Source of the DNA: a virus | Taxonomy: Duplodnaviria; Caudoviricetes | Reading direction: 5' to 3' (one strand) | IMG/VR virus record: IMGVR_UViG_3300030330_001659 | Span: 1 to 55,997 of that record | Length of the DNA stretch: 55,997 bases | Shown here: one piece after another, positions 8,921 to 45,834 of the stretch | Position numbering within the stretch: the stretch's first letter is position 1 | Layout: the number at the start of each line of letters is the position of its first letter | Position numbers and translations under genes: made by a program | Notes under the pieces: generated by a model | Databases searched by the model: none | Told to the model about the DNA's origin: nothing | What the model saw: only the letters and a program-made list of their open reading frames with translations

Positions 8921-9087
8921 TGAGTATTAGTAATCCTCCTAGCACAGGAGATGCTAACTTAGACTTTACATTATTAGAGTTAATTAGAGCACTTAACGAA
9001 AGGCAAGAAGAACATTTAAAGCTATTGGCAGACATTAGAGCTGCCAGTAGTCTTGCAGACCTTAAGGAAAGGATAGACGAAAAATGA
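8920..9087 (+). CDS. Small hypothetical protein, 55 aa
   Basis: Hand-translated MSISNPPSTGDANLDFTLLELIRAL...; strong AGGAGG RBS; start and stop overlap both neighbours. Confidence 0.75.
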   Translation: MSISNPPSTGDANLDFTLLELIRALNERQEEHLKLLADIRAASSLADLKERIDEK

Positions 9088-22342: not shown

Positions 22343-24706
22343 TTATGAAAAGAAGTAGTCGCTATCTTGTATAGCTTCTACATCTAACTCCCCTAGTTTA
22401 TAGTTGTAATTAAAGTTTTCAGGTTCTAGCAATAGCATTTCTGCTATATCCTTATAGAAATCCTTATGATTGTACATTTTAATGAACACTTCTTTAGTTA
22501 AACTTAATAAGCTAGCTACATCACAAGCGTGAGTAGAAAATGAATCATGAATTGCAGCAAAGTCACCGTCCCAATGATGGATAATAAGTGCCATATGAGC
22601 TGCGTCCATACTATGTATGAAGTTAGGGCTTATACCTGATGCAAAGCCACCAGGACTAGGTATCTTTTTACCATACACTAGCCTATGTTCTTTGCCTACG
22701 TGTTGTATCCTCATATCAGAGATCCAGCTTTTCCACTTTACGTCTTCCATTACGTAGTTTTCATAACGTACTGGGAAGCCGGAAGGCGTAGTCCATTCGA
22801 CAACTGGCTCTTTCAAGTCAGATATTATGTGATTTGCTATTGCCTGTAGGTAACTCATAGTCTCGAGTGGACCTGGACACACCTCATCTATAGCTTTTAT
22901 TAAGTTATATGACAAGTCGGTACAGTCACTCATAGTAATATCGTACTTACTATGGAATCCTTCGGCATAACAATCAGCATACATGTTCAAAGCTATGGCT
23001 AAGTGGCCCGCAGAGTACGCTCTAGTCATCGCTCCGCGTTTCGATATACCTTTCCTTATGTGTTTCATAGGCATGTCTCTCTGCGCGAACCAGTCAGGTA
23101 CGCGAGATATCAATGCTTTAGCTGTTTGCACATAAAAGTCCTTAGGTATATCAGTTTTTACTAAACCTACTAGCTCACCTGCCTTTTTATCCTTAGATAT
23201 AGCAGCAAGGTGTTGCCAACCATTATTAGAACCATCAATAGGAATAGGTAGGCTTAAGTAATACACGCCACTTTCCTCTTTTTGATCCCATAAACCACAC
23301 CACGCTTTACAACAAGCAAGAAAGCTTACGCCTTTTTCTGCTTTGTCGTGTATAGTACGGTTATTCCAGGTGTTTCTAATGAAATCCTCATTATGAATTA
23401 CCCATTTTACCCTATCATCGATAGTCATTTTGTCGACTGATATGTCTGTAAGTCCTTCATCTTCAAGATGTGACTTGTAATCAGCTTCACACCAGTCAGG
23501 TATGTTATCGATAGTATAAGATTGGTTGTACGTACAAGCCGTATGTACAGCAAAATAGTATAAACCCTCTTCAGTCATCGGTTTTGCATTAGCAAATTTG
23601 AGTAGACCACGTTCCATATCTTTACCTTGATAGTTTAAATATGACTCACGGTAGTATAGCCTGCCACGATAGTCTGCATCTACATACTGAAAGAAGACTT
23701 TATCCTTTAATGCTTCGGCTTTCTGTATAGTCATGTTGTATGCATCAAACTTACTACGGTTTTTAAGTAATACTAACTTAGCATTCCAGTGAGTAGCAGC
23801 TTCATCATACTTAGCCTGAGCTTTTTCCAATAGCTTTTTGTTAGGCTTATTACGTAGCTTGTTAGTTAAACGTCGTAACTCGCTGTAATATTTCTTTTCC
23901 AAAGACTTATTGCCTAACTCTGGTTTAAAGACGGTATTATTCCAGTATAAGTCTTTGCCTTGTAACTCATCGTTGTTACCAAAAATGCAGTAACGGTAGT
24001 TCTTACCGGTCTCATCTGATACCTTTAAGGTTTCAGTTACAAACTTACGTTTGTTTTTCTTTACTGCTTCCAAGATGTCGTTATCAATAGTCCATGCTGT
24101 TCGTTGCAGCTTGTTTATTGCATTAACAAATGGTTGATCTAACAGATCCTTGAAATCTTGGTCCTTATCATATCCCCAATGCTTAATAACAGGATGTCCG
24201 TTTTCCTGAAACAAATGATGGACACGATTAATTTTAGTAAATGAGGTATTTTGTATTAGTTCATTGACTACATCAGACGGTAATGATCCTATTTGTAACC
24301 ACTTATCTGATGTTTCAATCATGTACGGTGCCCGGCTAAATGGCTTTTTACCTACCGGGTTTTTCTCCCATTCAACTTGCGCTTCAGTAGGAGCTCTAAA
24401 TATTTTTATGTAACCACATTCATAAAAACCTTCTAGAACTAGGTCGCCGACTGTTACGTCGGCTCTAAATCCTAGCTCTACACCTTGTCTTAATAATACG
24501 TTTTTGCCTATTGCAACTGAAGCTGCAGTAAGTTTACACGTAGCTGACTCAGATGTAGACGTTTTTCTAAAGTGATATTGTAGTATAGTTAATGCATCAT
24601 ACACCAGCTGTTTAGGCTGTAACTCATGTTCGAGTACTAGCTTCACTGCCCATCGTTGAGGCGTGCTGAGTATCTTCTGCTCTAGATAATCTATTATATT
24701 CTGCAT
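22343..24706 (-). CDS. T7/T3-type single-subunit DNA-directed RNA polymerase
   Basis: DYRGRLY, IDGSNNGWQH (A), KRGAMTRAY (B), PNFIHSMDAAH and IHDSF (C); 787 aa in a single chain. Confidence 0.95.
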   Translation of the reverse strand: MQNIIDYLEQKILSTPQRWAVKLVLEHELQPKQLVYDALTILQYHFRKTSTSESATCKLTAASVAIGKNVLLRQGVELGFRADVTVGDLVLEGFYECGYIKIFRAPTEAQVEWEKNPVGKKPFSRAPYMIETSDKWLQIGSLPSDVVNELIQNTSFTKINRVHHLFQENGHPVIKHWGYDKDQDFKDLLDQPFVNAINKLQRTAWTIDNDILEAVKKNKRKFVTETLKVSDETGKNYRYCIFGNNDELQGKDLYWNNTVFKPELGNKSLEKKYYSELRRLTNKLRNKPNKKLLEKAQAKYDEAATHWNAKLVLLKNRSKFDAYNMTIQKAEALKDKVFFQYVDADYRGRLYYRESYLNYQGKDMERGLLKFANAKPMTEEGLYYFAVHTACTYNQSYTIDNIPDWCEADYKSHLEDEGLTDISVDKMTIDDRVKWVIHNEDFIRNTWNNRTIHDKAEKGVSFLACCKAWCGLWDQKEESGVYYLSLPIPIDGSNNGWQHLAAISKDKKAGELVGLVKTDIPKDFYVQTAKALISRVPDWFAQRDMPMKHIRKGISKRGAMTRAYSAGHLAIALNMYADCYAEGFHSKYDITMSDCTDLSYNLIKAIDEVCPGPLETMSYLQAIANHIISDLKEPVVEWTTPSGFPVRYENYVMEDVKWKSWISDMRIQHVGKEHRLVYGKKIPSPGGFASGISPNFIHSMDAAHMALIIHHWDGDFAAIHDSFSTHACDVASLLSLTKEVFIKMYNHKDFYKDIAEMLLLEPENFNYNYKLGELDVEAIQDSDYFFS

Positions 24707-25055
24707 TCATTCTCCTTGTTTTGCGAAAAGGATTCTGAGCTACATTAAGTAAGTCAGATCCCTTTCTTAGGCAACATTTTATCTCATGAGCTTCTACAAT
24801 AGTAGCTTCTTTGTCGGTCATTTGACCGCCTTTTATCTTAACAATATCTTGTATCTTGTAGTTATCAAGCTTATCTAGTAACCACACATGATGGTCATAA
24901 CTGCGGTTTGTAATCTGATAAGCTCGATGTAATGTACCTTTACCTACGTAAATTACTTCATCAGTCTCTGGGTCTTGATGGAAGTAAACACAATACATAT
25001 CTTCAGGATACCTAATAACTTCATTAGTGTTTTCTCTTATTTCAATGTTTCGCAT
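24624..25055 (-). CDS. GIY-YIG family endonuclease-like protein
   Basis: YCVYFH...IYVGKG..RAY, EA...E and LLN motifs. Confidence 0.7.
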   Translation of the reverse strand: MRNIEIRENTNEVIRYPEDMYCVYFHQDPETDEVIYVGKGTLHRAYQITNRSYDHHVWLLDKLDNYKIQDIVKIKGGQMTDKEATIVEAHEIKCCLRKGSDLLNVAQNPFRKTRRMNAEYNRLSRAEDTQHASTMGSEASTRT

Positions 25056-25489
25056 TCATGCACCTCCACACCATTATCTAATAAAAACTTTAATGCTTCT
25101 AACTCAGGTACTCGTTTACCGTTCTTATTAGATTTATACATTTCAGCATATATCATTCGCTTTATGCCTGCTTGTAATATAAGTTTAGTGCAGTCTTTAC
25201 AAGGTGAATGTGTTAAGTATAGCGTAGCATCTTCAGAAGAAGAAGTCGAAGCTGCTAGTTTAGTTATTGCATTTGTTTCTGCATGTACTAATTCCCATTT
25301 AGTATTACCATTAGCATCTCTTGTAGCGTTGTCCATACCATGAGGTGTACCATTCCAGCCATAGCTAAGGATCTTATTACCCCTAGCTATTACTGCACCT
25401 ACCTTGAAATGTTCATCACGAGATCTAAGAGCTACAACTCTAGCAATGTTCATGTACATCGCATCGTCCTTAGATAATTTCAAAGCCAT
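25037..25489 (-). CDS. dCMP deaminase
   Basis: KVGAVI, GWNG, HAETNAI and PCKDC zinc motifs. Confidence 0.93.
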   Translation of the reverse strand: MALKLSKDDAMYMNIARVVALRSRDEHFKVGAVIARGNKILSYGWNGTPHGMDNATRDANGNTKWELVHAETNAITKLAASTSSSEDATLYLTHSPCKDCTKLILQAGIKRMIYAEMYKSNKNGKRVPELEALKFLLDNGVEVHECETLK

Positions 25490-28290: not shown

Positions 28291-28678
28291 AATAAATCTC
28301 CGGTTTAGGCCAACAATTATTTAAGTAAACCACGTCAGCCTCATATACTGCATCACCTGTATCTACATCTACAAATGTAGAAAAGTAATACGGGTTGTAC
28401 ATTGCTTGTTGTGCATGAAGCATTCTATGGTTAGTATGAGTGCTATCAGCAGCAAGATCATACTTATTACCTAATACGAACCCTCTTATAAAAGCATGTA
28501 CGTTTTTCTTCTTTTCTTTAAGAACCCTTGCTCGACCAGCAGGTTGTACTGCAAACTTACAGTTATGTAAGGTTAGTAGGTTAGTATGAAACCATACTCT
28601 ACCTGCGTGTCTTACTGAAAAGGTTTTCTTATGTAGGTTATAATATACTTCAACCCACGTGTTATATCCTAAGCTCAT
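28217..28678 (-). CDS. Conserved hypothetical phage protein
   Basis: VYYNLHKKTFSV and GRARVLKEKKKNVHAF motifs. Confidence 0.75.
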   Translation of the reverse strand: MSLGYNTWVEVYYNLHKKTFSVRHAGRVWFHTNLLTLHNCKFAVQPAGRARVLKEKKKNVHAFIRGFVLGNKYDLAADSTHTNHRMLHAQQAMYNPYYFSTFVDVDTGDAVYEADVVYLNNCWPKPEIYYESSKSSNKNKASINKPSSKSNAA

Positions 28679-30519
28679 TAGTGTACCTCCGCATATGAGT
28701 TGCCTATTACATAGTTACCACCATCCATGCATTCAACACCAAACCATTTAGGTGCTTCACGAAAAGATTCTTGTAGTATTTCACCTACACGTTTAGAATC
28801 TTTATCACTTGCAATCCATGCTTGCTCGTCATGATAGAATATAGCAGGATAAGCATCAAGCTTTTCCTCTTTAATTTTATTCATAGCATAACTCAAAGCT
28901 GCTTTACAAGTAATACCTTCGGTAGTTTGTAATAGATAATTAAGTACTTGGTAATCAGATCTAGCAAAGATCTTACGACCATCTAGTCCTGGTATACAAC
29001 CATACTGATTAAATACACCACGTAGTTTATTAACTAGCTGCTCAAACCCAGGTAAGTTATTCATAAACTTTTGTCTGGCCTCTTTACCTTTAGGTGCACT
29101 GCTTACTCCTGTAAGAGTTTGGCCAAGCTTTGCATCACCTGCACCAAATAGAATAGCGTAGAGAAAAGACTTAGCCACGCTCCTATTACAACCAAGAACA
29201 TCAGCATTTCGTGTATGTTGATCCCCATTGACCACCAAGTCTGTGTAGGATTTATCTCCCACGTAATGGCATAAACCACGCAGCTGATTCCCAGCGGAAT
29301 CCGCACCAACAACTCGATAACCTGGCTCAGCAATGAATAGTTCCCTAAGCATTCTACCATACGCTGCATCTACTGCTGGTAAGTTAACGATAACTTCGTG
29401 ACGGCATCTAAAGCTAGGAGTACCAATAGTAAACATCCTACCATGAAGACGATAGTTTCCTGTGTTATCTTTCTGAATCCTTTCTAGCCATGATTCGATA
29501 GTAGCTTTGCGGTTCTTAATAGTATAGTACCTATCAATTAGTTTACCTTGTCTACCTAGCTTTGCTAGTGAGGTTGATGTAAGCTTAGGTCCTGTACGTA
29601 TCCAGTCACCTCTGTGACCTCGCTTTACGTTCCAGTCATCTGGTTTCCAGCCAATAGTTAGTAGCCATTGTTTAACTAATTCCATATTACTCAATGTTAC
29701 TTTTTCTATTTTGCTTCTTTGAAACTCCTGACCAGGTTTTATTGGAGGATTATCTGATAAAGCATCTTCACCTATTACATTGTTACCTAAATACTCAGAC
29801 AGTATTCTAGCTGTAGTAGCTGTATACAATCCTTTCTTAGTATACTTAGCAGTTTTAGGTGCTTTATCTATAAATACTTTAGTTGTACCTAGCTTTGGCT
29901 CAATGATAGACTCAATCTTATTCATGTGTCTTGTCATAAGTCGTAGGTTTTCCTGAGCTTTACTCAAGTCAAACAGCCAGCCAGTCTTACGTACTACAGC
30001 TTCGAACTCAGCTACATCATGCTCGACTCTCAAGCCTTTCTTGATTAAGTCATTGATTTGTATAGCTTTTTCTAACTCAGCAAGCAGTACTTCGTAAACT
30101 TTAGTATTTAGTTTTACGTCTTGAATACAGTAATCTATCATTCGAGGATCGTATGTCTTAAATCCATCGGCTGCCCATTCACTGTTATCCATTTTCTTAA
30201 AGCCAAGGTAACCACCCCAGCCTGCCAAGCCATGCTTATGTTGTCGGTTAAACTGCAATGTCTGGCTCATGATCCATGTATCGATCAAGACGGTTTTAGA
30301 AGACGGTTTCCATCCATAAAGTTTGTCCAATGCCATTAAATCAAAACCAATAATGTTATGACCAATCAGTGCATCAGCATTCTTCATGAAGTCTAAGCCA
30401 TTTTGGATGTCGGTAAACGTATAAATCTTTTTACTTACAACGTCTTGACAGACAAGTACATGGCACTTCGTCATATCTTCTAAAAATCCGTCAGTTTCTA
30501 TGTCAAATACTAACTGCAT
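28678..30519 (-). CDS. DNA polymerase, family A (T7-like, with 3'-5' exonuclease)
   Basis: FDIETDG, GHNIIGFD and YCIQDV exonuclease motifs; DSAGNQLR (A), AKSFLYAILFG (B), HDE (C). Confidence 0.95.
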   Translation of the reverse strand: MQLVFDIETDGFLEDMTKCHVLVCQDVVSKKIYTFTDIQNGLDFMKNADALIGHNIIGFDLMALDKLYGWKPSSKTVLIDTWIMSQTLQFNRQHKHGLAGWGGYLGFKKMDNSEWAADGFKTYDPRMIDYCIQDVKLNTKVYEVLLAELEKAIQINDLIKKGLRVEHDVAEFEAVVRKTGWLFDLSKAQENLRLMTRHMNKIESIIEPKLGTTKVFIDKAPKTAKYTKKGLYTATTARILSEYLGNNVIGEDALSDNPPIKPGQEFQRSKIEKVTLSNMELVKQWLLTIGWKPDDWNVKRGHRGDWIRTGPKLTSTSLAKLGRQGKLIDRYYTIKNRKATIESWLERIQKDNTGNYRLHGRMFTIGTPSFRCRHEVIVNLPAVDAAYGRMLRELFIAEPGYRVVGADSAGNQLRGLCHYVGDKSYTDLVVNGDQHTRNADVLGCNRSVAKSFLYAILFGAGDAKLGQTLTGVSSAPKGKEARQKFMNNLPGFEQLVNKLRGVFNQYGCIPGLDGRKIFARSDYQVLNYLLQTTEGITCKAALSYAMNKIKEEKLDAYPAIFYHDEQAWIASDKDSKRVGEILQESFREAPKWFGVECMDGGNYVIGNSYAEVH

Positions 30520-30547: not shown

Positions 30548-30566
30548 GCGCGGGTTTATCCCGCGC
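30548..30566 (-). promoter_or_regulatory. Hairpin element (candidate vRNAP promoter) upstream of the polA-to-RNAP operon
   Basis: + strand GCGCGGG-TTTAT-CCCGCGC with flank ATACTTTTAGTAG matching the family consensus; ~29 nt before the polA start. Confidence 0.6.
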
Positions 30567-30762
30567 CTTTAAGTTCTTCTTCATACTTTTCTATTCGATT
30601 CTTTAAAACGATTATAGTTGTGTCAAACACTAGTATTGCGTCAAGCTTTTTATCACGCACTCTTGCATTTTGAATGTCGGTTAATGCTTTAACTTCTATC
30701 CTTAAGTGATTGATATGATTCATTAATTTACTTCTGCTCATAGTCTGGTTCGTCATCAACAT
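30556..30762 (-). CDS. Hypothetical coiled-coil protein
   Basis: 68 aa ORF packed in the operon. Confidence 0.6.
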   Translation of the reverse strand: MLMTNQTMSRSKLMNHINHLRIEVKALTDIQNARVRDKKLDAILVFDTTIIVLKNRIEKYEEELKGAG

Positions 30763-31276
30763 AATCCTTTCTTAAAAAGTAATGAGTGATTCCTGTGTTA
30801 TTTGTATGGTCTGGGTCAACCCACTCTTCAGGCTTTATCATGTCAGGTAAACCTAAAGTATTAGGTCTAGACTCTTTTTGACCTACCTTTTTACTCATAT
30901 TAGCACGATGTACTCTATGCCAAGCAGTATGAGCATCAACTTGTAATATGTCTAATGTACCTATTGCGATAACACATAAGTCAATCAAACCGTCTACAAT
31001 ATCATCCGCATGTCGGTACTTTACTGCTTCTTTAGTCTCATGTAGTTCCTCATCAAGGAATCTTAAACGAAACTGTAGAAATTCGTGTAAAGAATAATAA
31101 TCTTTTTCTTGTAGTTTTCTTTTAACCCAATCATGCACCCCGAATTTGAGGTGCATGTCTCTAATATTTTTAGGCCAGTCAGTATCGCTACTTACCTTAG
31201 ACCATTTAGCATTCATATCTTTCTCCTGTTTTAATTTCCATAACATCCAGTCATAGTATCTTTCTGGTTCACGCAT
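30728..31276 (-). CDS. MazG-like/all-alpha NTP pyrophosphohydrolase
   Basis: FLDEELHE..EA, IVDGLIDL and VHRANMSK motifs. Confidence 0.8.
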   Translation of the reverse strand: MREPERYYDWMLWKLKQEKDMNAKWSKVSSDTDWPKNIRDMHLKFGVHDWVKRKLQEKDYYSLHEFLQFRLRFLDEELHETKEAVKYRHADDIVDGLIDLCVIAIGTLDILQVDAHTAWHRVHRANMSKKVGQKESRPNTLGLPDMIKPEEWVDPDHTNNTGITHYFLRKDYVDDEPDYEQK

Positions 31277-32108
31277 ATCTTAAGTCATTGGCTTTTTCAG
31301 AAGATCCTAATCTACCACCTATCTCTTTAATAGGCGGAAACCTTTTATTAAAGTCTTTGCTTTGTGTATTAATGCATTTCCATAACACGTTTCTTGACAT
31401 GCTAGGATACAACGGTGCAAAGATAGTTGCAAGGTAGTTTGTATCGTAGTACTCACTAAGCTTTGTATACAGGTACTTTGTGTTACCGTCAAGCTCATGC
31501 TTGTAGTCTTTTTGTGAAGCAAACGTACCATAATGATCTATTATTTGAAAGCCTTTTGCTTCTAACAAAGCACCAAACGCTCGGTAAGTCATTTCATTTA
31601 CGTGGTTCTTAGCTGCTCCTACCTTTTCATCATAACACGGTGTTGAGAAGTAACATGTACCACCTTGTACTACTACATCAGCTAGCTTATCTAAAATTGC
31701 TATTGCCTTTGTCGGTTCAACATGCTCAAGCACTTCAAGACAAACACTAACATTAAAGCTATCTTCCATAATGTCGGTTTGTGTAAAGTCTACGTTGTCT
31801 ATTAGATGTGGCTGAAACGTAGTGTTATCAAACATATGTGGCATTTCCATTTTGTTGTACTCAATACCTACATAGCTTCTTGGTGCCATACGGTTTGTCA
31901 TTAGCATTCTAGCTAACGGCATATCTTTACCACAACCTACATCTATTATGTCGGCTTCTTTATACTTACCACCAAGGTTTAGATCCTTAGCTATCTTGGT
32001 CCATCGTAAGCAGTGGGCTATATAGTCTCTATGTATAAAGCCTCTAGCTTCTGCTTGGTCTATACTTAAATGCGTATTATCTATTTCTTTTCCTCTAGCG
32101 TTAGCCAT
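31269..32108 (-). CDS. Class I SAM-dependent methyltransferase
   Basis: IIDVGCG motif I, YVGIE, CLEVLEHV, FSTP and HVNE; no DNA-MTase DPPY or PC motif. Confidence 0.85.
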   Translation of the reverse strand: MANARGKEIDNTHLSIDQAEARGFIHRDYIAHCLRWTKIAKDLNLGGKYKEADIIDVGCGKDMPLARMLMTNRMAPRSYVGIEYNKMEMPHMFDNTTFQPHLIDNVDFTQTDIMEDSFNVSVCLEVLEHVEPTKAIAILDKLADVVVQGGTCYFSTPCYDEKVGAAKNHVNEMTYRAFGALLEAKGFQIIDHYGTFASQKDYKHELDGNTKYLYTKLSEYYDTNYLATIFAPLYPSMSRNVLWKCINTQSKDFNKRFPPIKEIGGRLGSSEKANDLRYA

Positions 32109-32117
32109 GTTATCTCC

Positions 32118-32210
32118 TTAAAATATTATTCCGTGTATTACTGCGTTAAGTGCTAGTGTCATAGCTATTATTAAACCTAAAATTAGTAACAGTGCTTCTC
32201 CTTCATTCAT
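32118..32210 (-). CDS. Small hydrophobic peptide, 30 aa
   Basis: MNEGEALLLILGLIIAMTLALNAVIHGIIF; overlaps the upstream stop and fills the gap. Confidence 0.6.
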   Translation of the reverse strand: MNEGEALLLILGLIIAMTLALNAVIHGIIF

Positions 32211-32430
32211 GACAAAAATTCCTAAAAAATTTACATTGATTATTATCTCGACAAACTCTTTCGTGCTTGGCGGTTTCCCAACAGTCAGACTTCCATGGGT
32301 CTGTATATTTCTTTACTAGTCTATCCCATGTATCGTCTATAGTCATTAGTCCTGCAAGTGGTAACACTAGCATTAGCATTACCACCCAGAAAAAAGCCCA
32401 ACCAAATCCTTCGTTATGATATGGTTTCAT
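32203..32430 (-). CDS. Small membrane protein with Cys-rich C-terminus
   Basis: 75 aa, one TM helix. Confidence 0.65.
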   Translation of the reverse strand: MKPYHNEGFGWAFFWVVMLMLVLPLAGLMTIDDTWDRLVKKYTDPWKSDCWETAKHERVCRDNNQCKFFRNFCHE

Positions 32431-32924
32431 ACATCAATACCTTTCTCTTCATAGTATTTACTTACATGATAAGCAGCAGCTTCATATAGTTCAGTTAAGT
32501 TTTCATTTAACGTTTCTTTAGAAACTTTAGTTTCTTTCAATTTATTTATTAAGTCGGTTGCAAGATCAGTACATGCTGCATCATATCTTCTATCAACTAG
32601 GTTTCTAGTTTTTTCAGCTTGTTCTTTTAATAGTATATGTCTTTCAGTTAGTACTTTATCCATTGCATCTACAATTTGTTTTTGTAGTTTAGATTCACCT
32701 AAGTTTTCAGCTTGCTTTATACCTTCACGTACTAAACTAAATGCAGTTCTGTAAGCGTCAGCTACTTCGTTATTATTAATCTTAAATGCTTCCTGAGCTA
32801 GGTTATCTAACGCATCGGTTGTTTGTTTAAAAGCCATTCTTATAGATGGGAATTTTAGTAAGTTATTAGTCATCATATGCTCCCATTTCGTAATCAACTG
32901 GTACTGAGTAATGATAATCATCAA
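32427..32924 (-). CDS. Hypothetical helical protein (true start probably ~32876)
   Basis: ORF track; GGAG RBS before MMTNNLLKFP. Confidence 0.65.
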   Translation of the reverse strand: MMIIITQYQLITKWEHMMTNNLLKFPSIRMAFKQTTDALDNLAQEAFKINNNEVADAYRTAFSLVREGIKQAENLGESKLQKQIVDAMDKVLTERHILLKEQAEKTRNLVDRRYDAACTDLATDLINKLKETKVSKETLNENLTELYEAAAYHVSKYYEEKGIDV

Positions 32925-33567
32925 TCAAATGAAAATGTCTGGGATACACATGTAAGCTTTGTGCTTGCCATACAATCTGACCTTCTTCGTATCCAAGATC
33001 TTTACACAATCTACGCAAGACGGTACGTTGCCAGAATAAATCGTTTATATAACCAAACACAGCATCATTAGATCTCATCTGTACTACAGCATGTATCAAT
33101 TTATTTTTGATGTAATACGTTACTGCATTAGTACAAACAAAATCGTTCTTACCGTGTTCTCTGTACTGAGTGTGCATACCCGGATTAGTATACACCATTG
33201 TAGCTCTACGTGATTTAGGGTTTTGTTTTAGCTCTTGAAGTACATATTCATATTGAGTTCCGTTAAGAGCGCTATACACGAGATAGCCATAATTAGAATT
33301 AATGTCGCCTTTACTATTCGCCGCATGCTCTTTCCAAATGACTGGTACTTTTCCATATTCTTTCTTTAACTCCCTAAGATTTAAGCTAAGTGTATCATAC
33401 CACCTGACCTCAGCTTCTTGATATTCACGATTCGGTTTACCAAATATTGTCGGTTCAGTTGCTAAAAAGCTAGCACCTATGATTTCAAGATTACCATCAG
33501 GCTGTATCTCTTTGTCCCGATACATATCAATAAATGTTGTGCGTATATCTTTTACTGTGTCAGTCAT
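32866..33567 (-). CDS. Thymidylate-synthase-family dCMP hydroxymethylase (T4 gp42-like)
   Basis: NSNYG, SRRA, DFVCTN, MRSNDAVFGYIND (Asp at the position of ThyA Asn177) and SLHVYPRHF. Confidence 0.85.
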   Translation of the reverse strand: MTDTVKDIRTTFIDMYRDKEIQPDGNLEIIGASFLATEPTIFGKPNREYQEAEVRWYDTLSLNLRELKKEYGKVPVIWKEHAANSKGDINSNYGYLVYSALNGTQYEYVLQELKQNPKSRRATMVYTNPGMHTQYREHGKNDFVCTNAVTYYIKNKLIHAVVQMRSNDAVFGYINDLFWQRTVLRRLCKDLGYEEGQIVWQAQSLHVYPRHFHLIDDYHYSVPVDYEMGAYDD

Positions 33568-33874
33568 TATCTATCCTTTTGTTACCAGCATAGTTTCTTT
33601 CCATCCATACAATACAACGTGCTGCATAGTTAATCAGATCTCTAAGACAATCATCTGCTGTATCGTAGTTTATATCGCCTTTTTGTTCCATAACAGATCT
33701 AAAGCGTAACACTTTAGTTGTTAGCATAGTATCAAATGACTGCCATCCATGCGGGTAATAGTCATCGTCACACACAGAACCGCCTTGATAGTCCTTACCT
33801 TTCTTTTCCATTAAGGCTGCGCACTCTTTCAGTACGGTTATTGCGTCATGTAAATAAGTTTCTCCATATGTCAA
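33560..33874 (-). CDS. Nucleotide-modification-associated domain protein (DUF1599/Nmad1-like)
   Basis: KKGKDY...KVLR...DCLRDLINYA pattern. Confidence 0.7.
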   Translation of the reverse strand: MTYGETYLHDAITVLKECAALMEKKGKDYQGGSVCDDDYYPHGWQSFDTMLTTKVLRFRSVMEQKGDINYDTADDCLRDLINYAARCIVWMERNYAGNKRIDND

Positions 33875-34095
33875 TGTAATGTCTCCTTTACTACGTTTTC
33901 CGATATAACACTTTGTTTAACACATTCAGATAATAGTGTGCCAATAGTATCCCATTCCATTTCCTCAGATCGGTATACAAAAATAGCAATGGCGAGCAAA
34001 CAGCCCGCCACCGCAAATGGATCATGTTCTTCTTCTGTTAACTCTACTACGGTCTGCATAATGCGTTCATGTATTTTTATGGTTGGGTTTGTCAT
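33871..34095 (-). CDS. Hypothetical protein
   Basis: 74 aa, ATGA-coupled to both neighbours. Confidence 0.7.
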   Translation of the reverse strand: MTNPTIKIHERIMQTVVELTEEEHDPFAVAGCLLAIAIFVYRSEEMEWDTIGTLLSECVKQSVISENVVKETLH

Positions 34096-34373
34096 ACTGC
34101 CGTGATCTCCTCTATATCTGCACGGTAGTTTTCAATTACATACTGACAAACTTTATCCCATGTGTTATACTTTTCGCCTTCGATATCTACTGCCACTCCA
34201 TCGAACTCCTCATCATCACAGCATAATTGGAAATTACTATCCCATTCTATGCTACCATAGCAGTGAATCTCTCCGCCGTCAGGCTTAACGAATACATACT
34301 TATCATTTTCTTGTGTCGTTGTATTGTCTACACTCATAACATTCTCCATTGTAAACTCGTCTGATCGCCACAT
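34092..34373 (-). CDS. Acidic hypothetical protein
   Basis: 93 aa ORF; start uncertain. Confidence 0.65.
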   Translation of the reverse strand: MWRSDEFTMENVMSVDNTTTQENDKYVFVKPDGGEIHCYGSIEWDSNFQLCCDDEEFDGVAVDIEGEKYNTWDKVCQYVIENYRADIEEITAV

Positions 34374-34465
34374 CAGATAAACCCTAAAGTATCTTACTAC
34401 TTATGTCACGTTATACATTAAGTCCTCTCGTGCTAAGAAGGCGTAGTACTGGGCGAGTATTCTGT

Positions 34466-34546
34466 TTAATAATATTCTGCTAGATACCAGACGATGTAGG
34501 CCAATGCTGCACCGCCTCCGAAACTATATAGTATAAGCTCAAGCAT
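34466..34546 (-). CDS. Small hydrophobic peptide, 26 aa
   Basis: MLELILYSFGGGAALAYIVWYLAEYY; start overlaps the upstream stop. Confidence 0.5.
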   Translation of the reverse strand: MLELILYSFGGGAALAYIVWYLAEYY

Positions 34547-34847
34547 TATAATACTTTGGTATGTCGTTAACATAAACGTCATAATGCGTAGCCTTATCTA
34601 ATGGTAGGTAGCAGTCATAAGCTCTTGGGTGTAATCCTTCTAATCTAGCCCATGAGGTTCTTGGACCACGACCCATTAGTCTTACTCTCATTTTGGTTCC
34701 CCAGCCTCTCTCGCTGTTCATAGTTTTTACGTTCTTCTTTAATTCTATGATAGCAGGATCATTTCGGTTTGTTACAGTAAACTTATAACCGCTCATTGGG
34801 AATCGTTCTTTAGTTACTCTATGTATTGCTGTTGTTGCTTTCTTCAT
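34539..34847 (-). CDS. Basic hypothetical protein
   Basis: 102 aa, AGGAG RBS, RLMGRGPR motif. Confidence 0.75.
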   Translation of the reverse strand: MKKATTAIHRVTKERFPMSGYKFTVTNRNDPAIIELKKNVKTMNSERGWGTKMRVRLMGRGPRTSWARLEGLHPRAYDCYLPLDKATHYDVYVNDIPKYYNA

Positions 34848-34856
34848 GCTATTCTC

Positions 34857-35069
34857 CTAATTAGCTAATTCAAAATCTTCTTGCAGTTTCTCTTCTCGCT
34901 TATTGTTCATCCATTCTTGTAAGCAAGCTACTGCATCTTTCTTATCGAGGTTAAAGTCGTCTACTAGATACGTACATGCACCGAACATATTACATTCGCC
35001 GCTTTCCCTGAGGCTGTCAAGGAACTTAAAACATTCTTTCTTGTAAGTTTTTGTGAGGTTTCTAGGCAT
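34857..35069 (-). CDS. Conserved hypothetical phage protein
   Basis: FLDSLRESGECNMFGA..YL motif. Confidence 0.75.
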   Translation of the reverse strand: MPRNLTKTYKKECFKFLDSLRESGECNMFGACTYLVDDFNLDKKDAVACLQEWMNNKREEKLQEDFELAN

Positions 35070-35253
35070 GATGTCTATCTATCCTTTCTTGATCTTTTTC
35101 GCTTAATTCTTGATATCTTACATACTTAGCTACTGGTACATCTGCTAGACTATATAATCCGCCTAGTCTACCCCATTCGTCTACTGGGTATGTCATTGCT
35201 TTATACGGAACTTGTTGAGTTTGGGAATCGTTTTGTTCCATGCTTACCTCCAT
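35062..35253 (-). CDS. Hypothetical protein
   Basis: 63 aa; YPVDEWGRLGG; GGAGG RBS before the internal MEQ start. Confidence 0.6.
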   Translation of the reverse strand: MEVSMEQNDSQTQQVPYKAMTYPVDEWGRLGGLYSLADVPVAKYVRYQELSEKDQERIDRHHA

Positions 35254-35440
35254 CTTCTGATATGCAATTAGTTTCTGCTACTTTATATTTAGGTAGGACT
35301 CGCAAAGCATCTCGCTGCATTTCGTCGGTTCTGTTAATGCAATGCTCAATAGCATTATACGGTCCTCTGTTATCGGATAGTAATATGCAATCAGGTAAAC
35401 CCATTGCTAATTTACATACGATTATGGTTGCATAAATCAT
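35201..35440 (-). CDS. Hypothetical protein with hydrophobic N-terminus and spaced Cys
   Basis: 79 aa; C..C..GPY...C pattern. Confidence 0.65.
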   Translation of the reverse strand: MIYATIIVCKLAMGLPDCILLSDNRGPYNAIEHCINRTDEMQRDALRVLPKYKVAETNCISEDGGKHGTKRFPNSTSSV

Positions 35441-35441
35441 T

Positions 35442-35729
35442 TCAACAACCTCGGTGAACTGGCTCTTCTTCTTCTGTAGCTAACCTTTTTTGCTCGTCAA
35501 CGATTAGCTCCTTGAGATACCACTCTGCTTTCTTAAGATCATTTATTGCTTGACCTTTGGCGCGATAACGCCAAATGTATTTCATGATGTTACCTTGCAA
35601 GTACCCTTGATACCCTTCACCAGTGGCTGCTTTGATTGCTTCAATGCACTCAACGTCGCCTTGTTTGTAATGTGGTGGACTATTGACAATGAGCTCGTCA
35701 ATGGTCATGAAGTCTTTTGCTAGTTTCAT
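35442..35729 (-). CDS. DUF3310 (SaV-like) protein
   Basis: VNSPPHY, ECIEAI, GNIMKYIWRY and DLKKAEWYL motifs. Confidence 0.88.
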   Translation of the reverse strand: MKLAKDFMTIDELIVNSPPHYKQGDVECIEAIKAATGEGYQGYLQGNIMKYIWRYRAKGQAINDLKKAEWYLKELIVDEQKRLATEEEEPVHRGC

Positions 35730-35760
35730 TGTGACTCTTTCTAATGGTTAGTTCAGGCAG

Positions 35761-35777
35761 CGCGAGCTTGTCTCGCG
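35761..35777 (-). promoter_or_regulatory. Hairpin element (candidate vRNAP promoter)
   Basis: + strand CGCGAG-CTTGT-CTCGCG, flank TTAGTTCAGGCAG; 32 nt before the DUF3310 start. Confidence 0.7.
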
Positions 35778-35833
35778 GTAAAAGGGAACTGCGTGACGCC
35801 CTGAACCCCGTTGTCGGTTATGTAAAATTTACC

Positions 35834-35902
35834 CTTGCCCCCATAGGCCGCCCGTTGGCACGCTTAGTATAAGCGCACGCCAACGAGGACTATGAGGACA
35901 AG
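35834..35902 (-). other. Long imperfect RNA hairpin (~28 bp)
   Basis: Arms pair 35834-35866 with 35870-35902; four C.A mismatches on + become G-U pairs on the minus (sense) strand. Confidence 0.65.
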
Positions 35903-35929
35903 CAGTAGGAGGATTGATATGGTAAACAT
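35864..35929 (-). CDS. Small hydrophobic peptide, 21 aa
   Basis: MFTISILLLLVLIVLVGVRLY; TAATG coupling to the upstream peptide. Confidence 0.6.
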   Translation of the reverse strand: MFTISILLLLVLIVLVGVRLY

Positions 35930-36000
35930 TAATGCCTTTCCTGAAGTACAATGAGGCCGAATATAACGACCCCAAGGACTATAAAGAACGACACAGACAT
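35929..36000 (-). CDS. Small hydrophobic peptide, 23 aa
   Basis: MSVSFFIVLGVVIFGLIVLQERH; TGATG coupling to the SSB stop. Confidence 0.6.
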   Translation of the reverse strand: MSVSFFIVLGVVIFGLIVLQERH

Positions 36001-36500
36001 CAGAATGGCAACTGCTTTTCTGACGGCTCAGACGTAGCTACACTAGGTGCAGACTCGATAGCTTCGAAGCCTGCTGTAGGCGTGTACTCTACGAGGTCTA
36101 CAACTTGAACTGCAGTAAGCGAAGTAGCAACACCTTTACGACCTGGTGCTTCGTACTCATACTGCCACAAGTTGACATTAACCTTGGAACCGTTGCCGAT
36201 ATTAGTGCCATCAAGAGACTGTAGCTTAGAATCTACGATCTTGACAGGCGCATTCGGATTGCCATCGGCTTTGATACCTTTACGCTTTAGGTTAACATTA
36301 AAGGTCTTATCGTCATCTTTATCTTGCTTGACATTAAGACCATAATCTTTGAGCTCTTGAACTTTAGCAGCATCAGAGGTCTGTATCACCATTTCCCATT
36401 GCTTAGAACCGAATGGGTTAACGGGTGCGTCAGTACCTGAGATACGACAAAACTTAGCTGTAAGATCTTTTATGATTATAGAACGAGGATATGTACTCAC
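36000..36500 (-). CDS. Phage single-stranded DNA-binding protein (gp2.5-like OB fold)
   Basis: IGNGSKVNV and LTAVQVVDLVEY motifs; low-complexity tail ending LPF; GTG start with AAGGAG. Confidence 0.8.
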   Translation of the reverse strand: MSTYPRSIIIKDLTAKFCRISGTDAPVNPFGSKQWEMVIQTSDAAKVQELKDYGLNVKQDKDDDKTFNVNLKRKGIKADGNPNAPVKIVDSKLQSLDGTNIGNGSKVNVNLWQYEYEAPGRKGVATSLTAVQVVDLVEYTPTAGFEAIESAPSVATSEPSEKQLPF

Positions 36501-36545
36501 GACTTTACTCCTTTATAGTTTAGATTAAAAGATTAGTATATGCAA

Positions 36546-36562
36546 CGCGAGCTTGTCTCGCG
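36546..36562 (-). promoter_or_regulatory. Hairpin element (candidate vRNAP promoter)
   Basis: Identical 17-mer to 35761-35777, flank TTAGTATATGCAA; 46 nt before the SSB start. Confidence 0.7.
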
Positions 36563-36571
36563 CTACAAGGG

Positions 36572-36703
36572 TTAACTAGGATACTTGTTACTAATAAAGT
36601 GATCGACATTGAGATTATTAGAAACGATATGGATAATCTCGTCGACACCTAGCGCCACATTATACACTGCAAGCGCATAGTCAAAGATTTCTTGATGTGT
36701 CAT
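36572..36703 (-). CDS. Small hypothetical protein, 43 aa
   Basis: MTHQEIFDYALAVY...; AAGGGAG RBS. Confidence 0.6.
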   Translation of the reverse strand: MTHQEIFDYALAVYNVALGVDEIIHIVSNNLNVDHFISNKYPS

Positions 36704-36735
36704 AACAACTCCCTTATAAGAAATACTACGAGCAA

Positions 36736-36752
36736 TGCCAGCTTGTCTGGCA
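36736..36752 (-). promoter_or_regulatory. Hairpin element (candidate vRNAP promoter)
   Basis: + strand TGCCAG-CTTGT-CTGGCA, flank ATACTACGAGCAA; 33 nt before the next start. Confidence 0.7.
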
Positions 36753-36865
36753 CATACAATACCCCTAGCCAGGTGGCCATTGAGAGACACATGACTATCT
36801 CGAAAATCACCCTATTATTATACTCTTAGAGGTATAAGGGTAACTTAACCGGCCCCACAACCCCC

Positions 36866-36881
36866 TCTCTAATAGGGGACA
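36866..36881 (-). promoter_or_regulatory. Candidate phage-RNAP promoter (linear class) facing the replication arm
   Basis: Reverse complement TGTCCCCTATTAGAGA is identical to the copy at 41037. Confidence 0.8.
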
Positions 36882-36915
36882 GGCACATTTTCAGCAAATC
36901 ACTTCCTACCAGAAA

Positions 36916-36932
36916 CATGCGCTTGTCGGACA
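36916..36932 (-). promoter_or_regulatory. Degenerate copy of the hairpin element
   Basis: G-CTTGT-C core and flank TTCCTACCAGAAA are retained, but the stem is mostly broken. Confidence 0.35.
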
Positions 36933-36978
36933 TACGGGTAAATATATCGGTGTCGGTACTTGAAACACCGGTCAGGCT

Positions 36979-37006
36979 AAAAAAGAAGGCTCCCTTGAGA
37001 GCCTCC
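36979..37006 (-). terminator. Intrinsic terminator ending the earliest region
   Basis: Minus strand GGAGGCTC-TCAAGG-GAGCCTTC followed by TTTTTT, just after the stop at 37017. Confidence 0.8.
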
Positions 37007-37016
37007 TTTCCAAACC

Positions 37017-37223
37017 TCACCGATAGTGAAGGTTCCATATATATTCTTCCCATTTCCAGTGGGCATCCACCATAGCCATAGCTATAGACTGACCACCTTT
37101 CCTGGCCTCCTTATACGCGTTTACAAACCGTGGGATTTCTCCAGCACCATCTGCCTCGCATAGTAAGTAGTCGAATGTTTCCCGATCCGTCTTAGATGGG
37201 ATATCAAATTTGTAATTACTCAT
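37017..37223 (-). CDS. Early hypothetical protein, 68 aa
   Basis: MSNYKFDIP start with AAAGGAGGT RBS (the ORF track extends to 37280). Confidence 0.75.
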   Translation of the reverse strand: MSNYKFDIPSKTDRETFDYLLCEADGAGEIPRFVNAYKEARKGGQSIAMAMVDAHWKWEEYIWNLHYR

Positions 37224-37248
37224 ATCAACCTCCTTTGTAATTACGTTG

Positions 37249-37320
37249 AGAAAGAAGATAGGAGATACATTGCACTTCACTGAGAGAGGAAATTATCTCG
37301 GCAGTCTCTATCTTCTTTCT
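37249..37320 (-). other. 5' leader stem-loop
   Basis: Perfect 13-bp inverted repeat AGAAAGAAGATAG (37249-37261) / CTATCTTCTTTCT (37308-37320). Confidence 0.65.
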
Positions 37321-37327
37321 ATGAGAA

Positions 37328-37346
37328 AGCCCAGCTTGTCTGGGCT
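37328..37346 (-). promoter_or_regulatory. Hairpin element (candidate vRNAP promoter)
   Basis: + strand AGCCCAG-CTTGT-CTGGGCT, flank TTTCTATGAGAAA. Confidence 0.7.
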
Positions 37347-37359
37347 CCCTCTTGTAAAC

Positions 37360-37707
37360 CTAGCAATCCTCCTGATAGTCGTCCGGATCAAAGCTAGGAC
37401 CTGGGTTAAATACTGGATCCATTTCTGGTGGATTCATATCCCTATCCAGCCTGTTCCAGTGATCCGTAAACCAGTCGTAGTAGCACCACACCACACTCCT
37501 TAGTTTCTGTGGATCCATCTCCGGCACCAGCCTCTCGATCTTCCGAGCCACCTTAGCCTTTGACCTAACCTTACTCCGATCCAGCACGTTGTAGACCCGA
37601 CAATCGTCCGCCGCGTCCTTACCAACCATAGCCTGAAAGACCAGAGCCTTGACAATATCCGACAAGATATCGCCCTCCATTTTAACGTCCTTAATGTTTA
37701 ACCTCAT
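37360..37707 (-). CDS. Early hypothetical protein, 115 aa
   Basis: MRLNIKDVK start with AAAGGAGGT RBS; acidic C-terminus. Confidence 0.75.
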   Translation of the reverse strand: MRLNIKDVKMEGDILSDIVKALVFQAMVGKDAADDCRVYNVLDRSKVRSKAKVARKIERLVPEMDPQKLRSVVWCYYDWFTDHWNRLDRDMNPPEMDPVFNPGPSFDPDDYQEDC

Positions 37708-37749
37708 ATTAACCTCCTTTGTTTTAATGAGATCCATTGATACCAGCCA

Positions 37750-37842
37750 TCACTTAAATCCGCCTGATAGCCAGTAACAATACCATACCACGATGCCACA
37801 GCCAACCGCCATGGCACCATGTATTATTAATATCTCCACCAT
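37750..37842 (-). CDS. Small hydrophobic peptide, 30 aa
   Basis: MVEILIIHGAMAVGCGIVVWYCYWLSGGFK; AAGGAGGT RBS. Confidence 0.7.
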   Translation of the reverse strand: MVEILIIHGAMAVGCGIVVWYCYWLSGGFK

Positions 37843-37844
37843 GG

Positions 37845-37940
37845 TTACCTCCTTTCCTTGTAGTTAAACCATACGTGTAGTAGACCCATCCATATGAAAG
37901 GCCAACCAACCAGCAATACCGCTGCCACCAAGTCCCCCAT
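37845..37940 (-). CDS. Small hydrophobic peptide, 31 aa
   Basis: MGDLVAAVLLVGWPFIWMGLLHVWFNYKERR; TAATG coupling. Confidence 0.65.
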   Translation of the reverse strand: MGDLVAAVLLVGWPFIWMGLLHVWFNYKERR

Positions 37941-38014
37941 TATGATACCATAAGTAGGATAATGATAGCAGCAAATATGCAAGTCACTCCGAAGATGTCC
38001 TCACCGTTTACCAT
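37940..38014 (-). CDS. Small hydrophobic peptide, 24 aa
   Basis: MVNGEDIFGVTCIFAAIIILLMVS; AAAGGAG RBS. Confidence 0.7.
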   Translation of the reverse strand: MVNGEDIFGVTCIFAAIIILLMVS

Positions 38015-45746: not shown

Positions 45747-45824
45747 ATGAATAAACAAGCTTTGATAACGCATATTATTATGGTTATCTTAGGTGTTTTA
45801 TGCATTTATTATCTTGCTTTTTAA
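45747..45824 (+). CDS. Small hydrophobic peptide, 25 aa
   Basis: MNKQALITHIIMVILGVLCIYYLAF; abuts the upstream stop. Confidence 0.5.
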   Translation: MNKQALITHIIMVILGVLCIYYLAF

Positions 45825-45834
45825 GGAGAAACAA

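Follow-up and report, generated by a model that had tools for sequence, protein, structure and literature searches.

Background

The 5-hydroxymethylcytosine (5hmC) pathway of bacteriophage T4 is carried by the dCTPase/dUTPase gp56, the deoxycytidine monophosphate (dCMP) hydroxymethylase gp42, the deoxynucleoside monophosphate (dNMP) kinase gp1, the dCMP deaminase Cd and the alpha- and beta-glucosyltransferases. To our knowledge, sugars and the carbamoyl group are the caps described so far for the 5hmC hydroxyl. The present work concerns a gene cluster (33874-30728, minus strand) of the IMG/VR record IMGVR_UViG_3300030330_001659, an entire linear virus genome of 55,997 bp (CheckV completeness 100%) that was analysed over its full length and is referred to below as the window. 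The cluster encodes, among other proteins, a thymidylate synthase (TS) homologue, a MazG-like pyrophosphohydrolase and a class I S-adenosylmethionine (SAM) methyltransferase. It would represent a cytosine-replacement pathway of the T4 type to which a methyltransferase has been added. A whole pathway of this kind, with O-methylation as its tailoring step, is predicted with a probability that we put at about 0.45.

The window shares with T4 a gp42-type active-site signature, a dCMP deaminase, a nucleoside triphosphate (NTP) pyrophosphohydrolase and a polymerase of the phage's own. The pyrophosphohydrolase, however, is a MazG/PRA-PH-type enzyme that shows no detectable similarity to gp56. Pfam scans of the window revealed neither a P-loop dNMP kinase nor a thymidylate synthase of the phage nor a glucosyltransferase, and a SAM methyltransferase is present instead. 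The phages that carry the two pathways differ as well, T4 being a T4-like myovirus and the window a T7-like/SU10-like podophage of 56 kb.

According to the accessible portion of the MetaGPA report (eLife 2021, PMC8670742), a TS homologue, a PRA-PH protein and a dCMP deaminase co-occur with a carbamoyltransferase on cytosine-modified phage contigs, and the TobZ-like O-carbamoyltransferase is proven to act on the hydroxyl of 5hmC, both in DNA and in 5hmdCTP. The core of that module is the same as in the window; the tailoring enzyme differs, a carbamoyltransferase of proven activity there and a predicted SAM methyltransferase here. The same portion of the report gives the Pfam family Methyltransf_23 as not enriched (27 versus 1436 contigs, corrected p = 1; PMC8670742), a result to be read in the light of a Pfam family far broader than the methyltransferase subfamily considered here. 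The CmoX/CmoA/CmoY system for 5-carboxymethylcytosine, described in Synechococcus phage S-B43 in the available part of another article (Nat Commun 2025, PMC12783734), is linked to the window only via a family branch that is 30-34% identical.

A module of similar composition is present in two cultured phages. In Stenotrophomonas phage AXL3 it consists of gp27-gp31 (dCMP deaminase, TS homologue, kinase, NTP pyrophosphohydrolase and methyltransferase), and the module of the Pseudoxanthomonas phage PW916 is alike. The AXL3 methyltransferase is 30.6% identical to that of the window over 79% of the query (E 3e-24), and its TS homologue displays the same Asp/Asp/Asp signature. Unlike the window, AXL3 and PW916 are siphoviruses with 63% GC whose module includes a P-loop kinase of 327 aa and which encode ThyX as well. 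As stated in the accessible text (PMC7504290), of 37 restriction enzymes tested on AXL3 DNA, the 35 with G or C in their sites fail to cut and the 2 that cut have sites of A and T only; the genome was sequenced from a Nextera XT library. In that same text the genes are read as a deoxythymidine monophosphate (dTMP) pathway and no modification is assigned; the PW916 paper is without restriction or modification data. The restriction pattern of AXL3 fits a global cytosine modification. A first-pass annotation of the window had taken the successful sequencing of its DNA as a sign of small or partial modification. AXL3, with a homologous module, is resistant and was yet sequenced; sequenceability therefore does not imply partial modification, and this argument was abandoned. 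Since cultured phages carry the module, the reading proposed here is directly testable by mass spectrometry.

Whether a given restriction, type IV or CRISPR defence works against a phage depends on the hypermodification of its DNA, and such modifications have also supplied reagents for epigenetic sequencing. Should the present reading be true, a methyl ether would be a third cap for the hydroxymethyl handle, beside sugars and carbamate, both minimal and chemically stable. It would also bring a new natural DNA base and an enzyme able to mark 5hmC selectively. A literature search, with subscription journals largely outside its scope, found no report of 5-methoxymethylcytosine as a natural DNA base or of an enzyme of this kind.

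Results and Discussion

The TS homologue is a predicted dCMP hydroxymethylase

The TS homologue is the sole TS-family gene of the window (one PF00303 match in the whole record). It matches PF00303 with 54.2 bits, against a cut-off of 24.3 bits, and phrog_160 with an E-value of 4.4e-41. Among PDB entries, T4 dCMP hydroxymethylase (1b49) is matched at E 4.9e-58 over residues 26-218, as compared with 3.4e-11 for ThyA. Identity is 46.5% to PP01 gp42 (a T4-like phage; 92% of the query aligned) and only about 26% to enzymes of the RB69 gp48 type.

The protein was aligned with E. coli ThyA, PP01 gp42 and an RB69 gp48-like control from phiR1-RT, and its motifs were located as NDFVC (141-145), MRSND (164-168) and FGYIND (171-176). 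The catalytic Cys145 (NDFVCTN) is aligned with that of T4 FMCTN (C148 in T4, C146 in E. coli), and Glu53 corresponds to T4 E60. Asp176 in FGYIND is aligned with T4 D179, which replaces Asn177 of E. coli. Asp168 corresponds to E. coli D169 and is kept, the gp48-like control having Asn in the same alignment. Asp142, three residues ahead of the catalytic Cys as is T4 D145, occupies the position of E. coli L143; MAFFT put this residue in the E. coli A142 column, and the L143 assignment is an ungapped count back from the Cys.

These residues can be read with rules given in the available part of a study of the TS family (NAR 2026, PMC13326640). There, a change of Asn177 to Asp is the mark of a dCMP-using enzyme, acidic residues in place of Leu143 are correlated with the formation of a hydroxymethyl product, and Asp169 to Asn marks the newly found 5-hydroxy-dCMP synthases, all tested ones having Asn. 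ThyA, for which E. coli ThyA served as the aligned control, is characterized by Asn177 and a hydrophobic residue at 143; the TS homologue of the window has Asp at both sites. Nor does it display the Asn for Asp169 of the 5-hydroxy-dCMP synthases. On these rules the protein is predicted to be a 5-hydroxymethyl-dCMP synthase, and not a dTMP, 5-methyl-dCMP or 5-hydroxy-dCMP synthase. Among deoxycytidine (dC) products, 5-hydroxymethyl-dC is favored over 5-methyl- or 5-hydroxy-dC because of the Asp at the L143 position, the Asp169 that is kept and the 46.5% identity to gp42. It is highly probable that the phage makes 5-hydroxymethyl-dC nucleotides.

The first-pass annotation had recognized the pattern RSND..FG..ND and deduced from it a cytosine-specific, T4 gp42-like enzyme; the pattern is present, and the 1b49 match together with the residue signature agrees with the deduction. 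It had also left the product as either 5-hydroxymethyl- or 5-methyl-dC. The hydroxymethyl half of this statement is retained and the methyl half is dropped, on the three grounds just given. A product of the Xp12 type, 5-methyl-dC, was considered separately and rejected as a prediction, both because Asp stands at the L143 position and because the protein is so close to gp42.

The methyltransferase family accompanies the TS homologue

A collection of 5.8 billion proteins yielded 1310 homologues of the methyltransferase at E<=1e-5, most of them from marine metagenomes, and a full hidden Markov model (HMM) search gave 314 clusters at 50% identity (E<=1e-30). The nearest Atlas clusters are 95-100% viral. 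A pattern scan of prokaryotes (one genome per species, 185,579 species) produced 3 full-length relatives, all located on contigs of metagenome-assembled genomes of at most 42 kb, and the sole one with enough flank carries the whole phage module. The family is virus-restricted, and spans marine, freshwater and soil phages, including the cultured AXL3 and PW916.

The gene-neighborhood survey suggested by the first-pass annotation was performed on 82 loci encoding the methyltransferase (80 IMG/VR contigs, MW202510 and AXL3). A TS homologue was found by HMM search in 67 of them. Asp at the third residue before the Cys, Asp169 and N177D are present in 66 of the 66 TS homologues that cover these sites, one other ending before position 177. 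In all 15 loci that lack a TS gene, the sequence stops a short way from the methyltransferase. When the whole records of 5 of these were searched, the 3 complete ones all proved to carry a TS homologue, located at the far end of the contig; no TS homologue was found in the remaining 2, which are fragments of 61% and 75% completeness. The methyltransferase is thus tied to a hydroxymethylase-type TS homologue in every testable locus. A MazG-like gene lies beside the methyltransferase in 68 of the 82 loci, and a dCMP deaminase gene next to the module in 62.

The order of the genes varies. One arrangement consists of methyltransferase, MazG, P-loop kinase, TS and deaminase, another of TS, MazG, methyltransferase and polA, and a third, in a UvsX-encoding phage, of TS, methyltransferase and deaminase. 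With gene order and phage background both varying, the association is not explained by descent from one common operon. Such a linkage is what one would expect of a tailoring enzyme for a hydroxymethyl base.

The TS homologue is also found on its own. The cultured pelagiphage HTVC200P (L109:4974-5792, MH598801) encodes a 'thymidylate synthase' with the dCMP-hydroxymethylase signature (DVPC, RSSD, G..YD), and no methyltransferase, MazG-like or deaminase gene adjoins it; as judged from this signature, the DNA of HTVC200P may contain 5hmC. The existence of a TS-bearing relative without the methyltransferase, the reverse being unseen, fits an optional enzyme whose step comes after that of the TS homologue. 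In the phages that carry the methyltransferase, the labels 'thymidylate synthase' and 'methyltransferase' hide a cytosine-replacement module from annotation.

In a UvsX/DnaB-encoding phage (IMG/VR contig L014:1-4752; L015-L017 are similar), genes for two cupins, a cytidylyltransferase-like protein, a UDP-glucose dehydrogenase-like protein and an NAD epimerase/dehydratase surround the trio of TS, methyltransferase and deaminase, which points to a sugar-nucleotide branch beside this methyltransferase.

Fold and conserved motifs of the methyltransferase

The AlphaFold2 model of the methyltransferase (predicted local distance difference test, pLDDT, 85.3) displays a class I methyltransferase fold. 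Its motif I, DVGCG, starts at residue 56, with D56, G58 and G60 invariant. The best structural match is the E. coli protein 4htf (Z 17.8, 208 residues aligned, root mean square deviation 4.2). The top structural matches lie within 1 Z unit, and no substrate can therefore be read from structure searches; the neighbors include the tRNA cmo5U methyltransferase 8k5l (Z 15.6) and Trm9 (Z 15.5). The first-pass annotation had described the enzyme as lacking the catalytic motifs of DNA methyltransferases, and the 279-aa protein does contain neither (D/N/S)PP(Y/F/W) nor PCQ, and matches no Pfam DNA-methylase at E<=0.01.

Sequence profiles point to UbiG and Hen1. Among NCBIfam models at E<=0.01, UbiG (TIGR01983) alone is matched, at 1.3e-7 and 31.2 bits, far under its own cut-off, and PDB profile matches include UbiG 4kdr (8.9e-5) and Hen1 (0.02-0.04). 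Hen1/HENMT1 and UbiG have in common with the window enzyme the class I fold, a D-x-G-C-G motif I, E-V-(I/L)-E-H after strand 4 and (S/T)TP after strand 5, and their acceptor is a hydroxyl. A bona fide bacterial Hen1 from contig L111 (466 aa, TIGR04074 705 bits) was taken as the comparator. Aligned to it with hhalign, the profile of the methyltransferase family gives a probability of 87% and an E-value of 3.8e-6 over 133 columns, and the invariant EVLEHVEP is paired with Hen1 EVIEHLDP, as is STP with TTP. In plant HEN1, according to the accessible part of the source (PMC10781085), four residues (Glu796, Glu799, His800 and His860) bind the Mg2+ by which the ribose hydroxyl is activated. E125, E128 and H129 of the window enzyme (E-x-x-E-H) are invariant in the family and correspond to the first three of these Hen1 ligands. 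In contrast to Hen1, the window enzyme has no counterpart of residues 1-255, the N-terminal RNA-binding region (279 versus 466 aa).

Several invariant segments are specific to the family, namely HRDYIAHCLRW in the N-terminal part and GTFAS, FAPLYP and SRN..W in the C-terminal part. As judged from the comparison with UbiG and Hen1, the family looks like a divergent offshoot of the metal-assisted hydroxyl O-methyltransferases. The kinship to Hen1 and UbiG and the E-x-x-E-H motif together favor the hydroxymethyl oxygen as the acceptor, short of proof. The standalone enzymes of the family are acidic (median isoelectric point, pI, 5.9), which leans slightly to a nucleotide as the substrate.

Across 21 homologues with identity down to 49%, residues 1-24 of the methyltransferase (MANARGK..IDNTHLSIDQAE.RGF) hardly vary, yet they are modelled at pLDDT <50; they may form a lid or a partner-binding tail.

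Fused members of the family

Eight homologues are longer than the window enzyme, and 7 of these display an N-terminal C5-cytosine DNA transferase domain, a linker and a C-terminal methyltransferase of the family. The set with the C5 fusion (P0121-P0125, P0127, P0128 and P0264) measures 696-821 aa, and its linker contains a conserved small helical segment. The fused methyltransferase domain is 30-34% identical to the window enzyme, with all hallmark motifs kept. Among PDB entries, the N-terminal domain comes closest to SpCmoX (8YF3, E 1.1e-19, versus 7.6e-17 for M.HaeIII). SpCmoX is described in the available text (PMC12783734) as a phage DNA cytosine C5-carboxymethyltransferase in which Arg350 contacts Cx-SAM, the SPPC motif defining CmoX. 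All 7 fusions have Arg at the position of Arg350, where ordinary methylases have Asn, and they carry NPPC, not SPPC. No CmoX-like gene lies within 7 kb of the methyltransferase in the 82 loci, and the window has no homologue of CmoX, CmoA or CmoY.

On one contig encoding such a fusion (L087, 10001-12460), a PRA-PH gene, a signature-bearing TS homologue, a dCMP deaminase gene and polA are located 4-7 kb downstream. This locus presents a puzzle, a C5-transferase occurring in a phage whose cytosines are predicted to carry a C5 substituent beforehand.

A fusion of another kind was found in P0251 (496 aa, one metagenome cluster), where the methyltransferase (103-352) is joined to a MazG-like domain (370-486; hhalign 99.3% to the MazG family of the window). 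It could be a real fusion or an artefact of assembly or gene calling. MazG-like fusions in P0184 and P0274 were also considered and rejected, as their C-terminal extensions are not MazG-like. The fusions tie the family to cytosine C5 chemistry on DNA and to a nucleotide-pool enzyme; they fit pre- as well as post-replicative methylation and do not settle between them.

Proposed pathway and alternative explanations

From the gene content, the active-site signatures and the synteny observed, we infer each of the enzymatic steps that follow, the acceptor atom, and whether methylation takes place on the mononucleotide or triphosphate or on DNA. The MazG-like pyrophosphohydrolase would convert deoxycytidine triphosphate (dCTP) to dCMP, thereby keeping cytosine out of the phage DNA and feeding the next enzyme. 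The gp42-type TS homologue would then form 5-hydroxymethyl-dCMP from dCMP, methylene-tetrahydrofolate and water, surplus dCMP being converted by the dCMP deaminase to deoxyuridine monophosphate (dUMP) for thymidylate synthesis by the host. Conversion of the modified nucleotide to the triphosphate would fall to a host kinase or possibly to the DUF3310 protein, and the family A polymerase of the phage would incorporate this triphosphate. The methyltransferase would use SAM to place a methyl on the 5-hydroxymethyl oxygen and produce 5-methoxymethylcytosine, a methyl ether in place of the sugar or carbamoyl group of other phages. The likely purpose of such a cap would be to blunt both classical restriction and nucleases targeting hydroxymethylcytosine.

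Confidence decreases along this scheme. That the methyltransferase tailors the hydroxymethyl base in some way is the assumption we lean towards. The specific product, 5-methoxymethylcytosine, is put forward at slightly less than even odds, and the extension of the scheme to this lineage and to several hundred clusters of methyltransferase-bearing phages, which would replace every cytosine by this base, is offered more tentatively still.

A number of observations weigh against the scheme. The chemistry of the phage and of its relatives is predicted from sequence only. The fold of the methyltransferase is generic, 4htf scoring level with many class I enzymes, small-molecule and tRNA methyltransferases among them, whose acceptor atoms are O, N, C or S; the best PDB sequence match is a protein lysine methyltransferase of Rickettsia (E 4.2e-7), and the NCBIfam Hen1 model does not match the enzyme at E<=0.01. 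The invariant segment NH169VNEMT pairs with Hen1 DHRFEWT, which holds the fourth metal ligand, in a Smith-Waterman alignment, but taken alone this segment is not significant, 230 of 500 shuffles reaching its score. The CmoX-like fusion partners hint that some members of the family act on a carboxymethyl group. The rule on L143, which distinguishes a hydroxymethyl from a methyl product, is a correlation only in the available part of its source (PMC13326640), and the restriction pattern of AXL3 equally fits plain 5hmC or 5-methylcytosine. On the side of the nucleotide pool, the dCTP specificity of the MazG-like protein is assumed, BLASTP shows no similarity of this protein to T4-type gp56 (PP01; E 0.032 over 31 residues), and Pfam found no P-loop dNMP kinase in the window.

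The acceptor may be another atom of a hydroxymethylated cytosine, such as N4 or N3, giving an N-methylated hydroxymethylcytosine. The synteny argument applies equally to this case, a fusion to a cytosine-flipping C5-transferase domain fits any cytosine atom, and phosphoethanolamine N-methyltransferases, toxoflavin N1-methyltransferase and NodS are among the structural neighbors. The nearest relatives of known chemistry, UbiG and Hen1, are however O-methyltransferases, the E-x-x-E-H motif is invariant in the family, and the amino-methyltransferase motif (D/N/S)PP(Y/F/W) is absent from the window enzyme; N-methylation is considered unlikely. The same low rank is given to a role outside base modification, in which the enzyme would methylate RNA (as Hen1 does at the 3'-end 2'-O), a protein or a metabolite, the operon reflecting early co-expression. 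The similarity to Hen1, the match to a protein lysine methyltransferase, the generic fold and the acidic standalone enzymes with their median pI of 5.9 all suit such a role. It is opposed by the presence of a hydroxymethylase-type TS in every testable locus across architectures and gene orders, by the fusions to a cytosine C5-transferase domain and to a MazG-like protein, by the TS-bearing relative that does without the methyltransferase when the reverse is unseen, and by the absence of the RNA-binding region of Hen1.

The family might also methyl-esterify a carboxyl on the C5 substituent of cytosine (5-carboxymethylcytosine or a derivative), in the manner of CmoM/Trm9 on tRNA uridines. This would account for the CmoX-like domain, with its invariant Arg at the Arg350 position, in 7 of the 8 longer homologues, and 8k5l and Trm9 are structural neighbors. 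It is nevertheless judged very improbable for the window, where no CmoX-like gene exists, any more than within 7 kb in the 82 loci; identity between the fused branch and the window enzyme is only 30-34%, the fusions have NPPC and not SPPC, and the L087 fusion locus also possesses the PRA-PH, TS and deaminase module. Least probable of all is that the TS homologue makes 5-methyl-dCMP or 5-hydroxy-dCMP, or uses dUMP, which would confer a different role on the methyltransferase. The L143 product rule is indeed a correlation, and TS homologues have recently been shown to be capable of unexpected, flavin-dependent hydroxylation (PMC13326640, accessible part). Against this stand the 46.5% identity and the E-value of 4.9e-58 to the gp42 type, as compared with about 26% identity to the RB69 gp48 type, the Asp168 that is kept, and an Asp176 where dUMP enzymes have Asn. 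A 5hmC pathway with O-methylation is the reading preferred among these.

Gene cluster and accessory enzymes

The features of the cluster and its surroundings are collected in Table 1. The genes that the first-pass annotation had placed in this order before polA are real minus-strand open reading frames (ORFs): DUF1599-like gene, TS homologue, two small ORFs, methyltransferase and MazG-like gene, followed by a 68-aa ORF and polA. Adjacent cluster genes overlap by 4-8 nt, which indicates one operon. The stop of the methyltransferase gene overlaps the start of the MazG-like gene by 8 nt, and the two are translationally coupled. The 165-aa ORF overlaps the TS gene by 59 nt, and its true start is therefore probably downstream. 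The dCMP deaminase gene, missing from the first-pass list, lies 5 kb further on the same strand and is a member of the module in related loci.

Table 1. Coordinates, strand and supporting matches of the cluster genes and neighboring features in the window
Feature	Coordinates	Strand	Matches and occurrence
DUF3310 protein	35442-35729	-	PF11753 73.8 bits; phrog_236 'nucleotide kinase' 2.4e-25
DUF1599-like protein	33560-33874	-	PF07659 18.4 bits; phrog_18404 4.8e-13
TS homologue (predicted dCMP hydroxymethylase, T4 gp42 type)	32866-33567	-	PF00303, phrog_160, PDB 1b49
165-aa ORF, lineage-specific	32427-32924	-	no Pfam/PHROG match; 9/82 loci, close relatives of the window
75-aa ORF, hydrophobic N-terminal stretch, lineage-specific	32203-32430	-	no family match; 6/82 loci
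Class I SAM methyltransferase, virus-restricted, 279 aa	31269-32108	-	PF13489 39.7 bits (cut-off 27 bits)
MazG/PRA-PH-type NTP pyrophosphohydrolase	30728-31276	-	PF01503 30.9 bits (cut-off 21.3); phrog_671 6.6e-22
68-aa ORF between the MazG-like gene and polA	30556-30762	-	no family match; 11/82 loci
Family A DNA polymerase (polA)	28678-30519	-	PF00476 57.6 bits; phrog_17 1.3e-90
dCMP deaminase	25037-25489	-	PF00383 87 bits; phrog_174 1.9e-43

The absence of a glycosyltransferase, ThyA and ThyX, also claimed in the first pass, agrees with Pfam scans of the 72 ORFs of at least 45 aa in the window, which detected no glycosyltransferase, ThyX, second TS or DNA-methylase family, the single PF00303 match being of the gp42 type. 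An unrecognized transferase could still be present, many small ORFs being without a family match.

In the MazG-like protein, E77, E80, D95 and D99 are invariant among 20 homologues and E76 is nearly so (E-E-x-x-E and D-x-x-x-D). With these motifs intact, the protein is predicted to be an all-alpha NTP pyrophosphohydrolase of the MazG/HisE (PRA-PH) group. Family and acidic motifs make it a plausible candidate for the dCTPase function attributed to it in the first-pass annotation, with no similarity to gp56.

The DUF1599-like protein matches PF07659 at E 0.0027, under the 25-bit cut-off of the model; its orthologue in L019, linked to it by phmmer at E 3.2e-16, passes the cut-off with 25.5 bits. 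Its AlphaFold2 model (pLDDT 80) consists of three long helices. Foldseek against the PDB returned nothing at E<=0.001, the best E-value being 0.53; the weak matches include iMazG, PRA-PH and dCTPase proteins and have to be read with the ease with which helical bundles match in Foldseek. BLASTP against gp56 and against the MazG-like protein gave nothing significant, and a literature search on DUF1599 retrieved unrelated papers only. The protein ('nucleotide modification associated domain 1') is possibly a degenerate MazG-like subunit.

As the window is devoid of a P-loop dNMP kinase, the DUF3310 protein is the only kinase candidate. By its PHROG label, it is a weak candidate for a 5-hydroxymethyl-dCMP kinase. 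In L070, a DUF3310 gene (8901-9161) is located just upstream of the TS homologue.

Other features of the genome

The sequencing runs containing this stretch are labeled marine or seawater metagenome. A megablast search of the cluster DNA against 50,697 phage records gave no match. No tRNA gene was found in the window, and sigma-70 promoter-like sites are not enriched between 28 and 38.5 kb (29, versus 32 ± 5.3 in shuffles). The minus strand carries a T7-like module composed of a single-subunit RNA polymerase, a primase-helicase, a 5'-3' exonuclease, the family A polymerase and a gp2.5-like single-stranded DNA-binding protein (SSB). The structural module is SU10-like (portal, major capsid and adaptor proteins), and the genome further encodes a ribonucleotide reductase, an Hsp20 protein and lysis genes.

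The region 34001-38000, which contains small early ORFs and the SSB gene, displays a GC content of 0.41-0.445, versus 0.35-0.38 across most of the genome; this rise is found near the point, at about 38.5 kb, where the coding strand changes. Very large ORFs of 1416, 990, 1364 and 1195 aa follow each other between 4670 and 22160 on the plus strand. The 990-aa ORF contains an SLT lytic transglycosylase domain. The 1195-aa ORF displays a faint match to a virion RNA polymerase PHROG (E 5.2e-6), and a T7-like RNA polymerase is also encoded at 22343-24706 on the minus strand. The Hsp20/alpha-crystallin gene (45793-46251, plus strand; PF00011 68.8 bits, phrog_432 1.3e-40) is located between the portal and scaffold genes.

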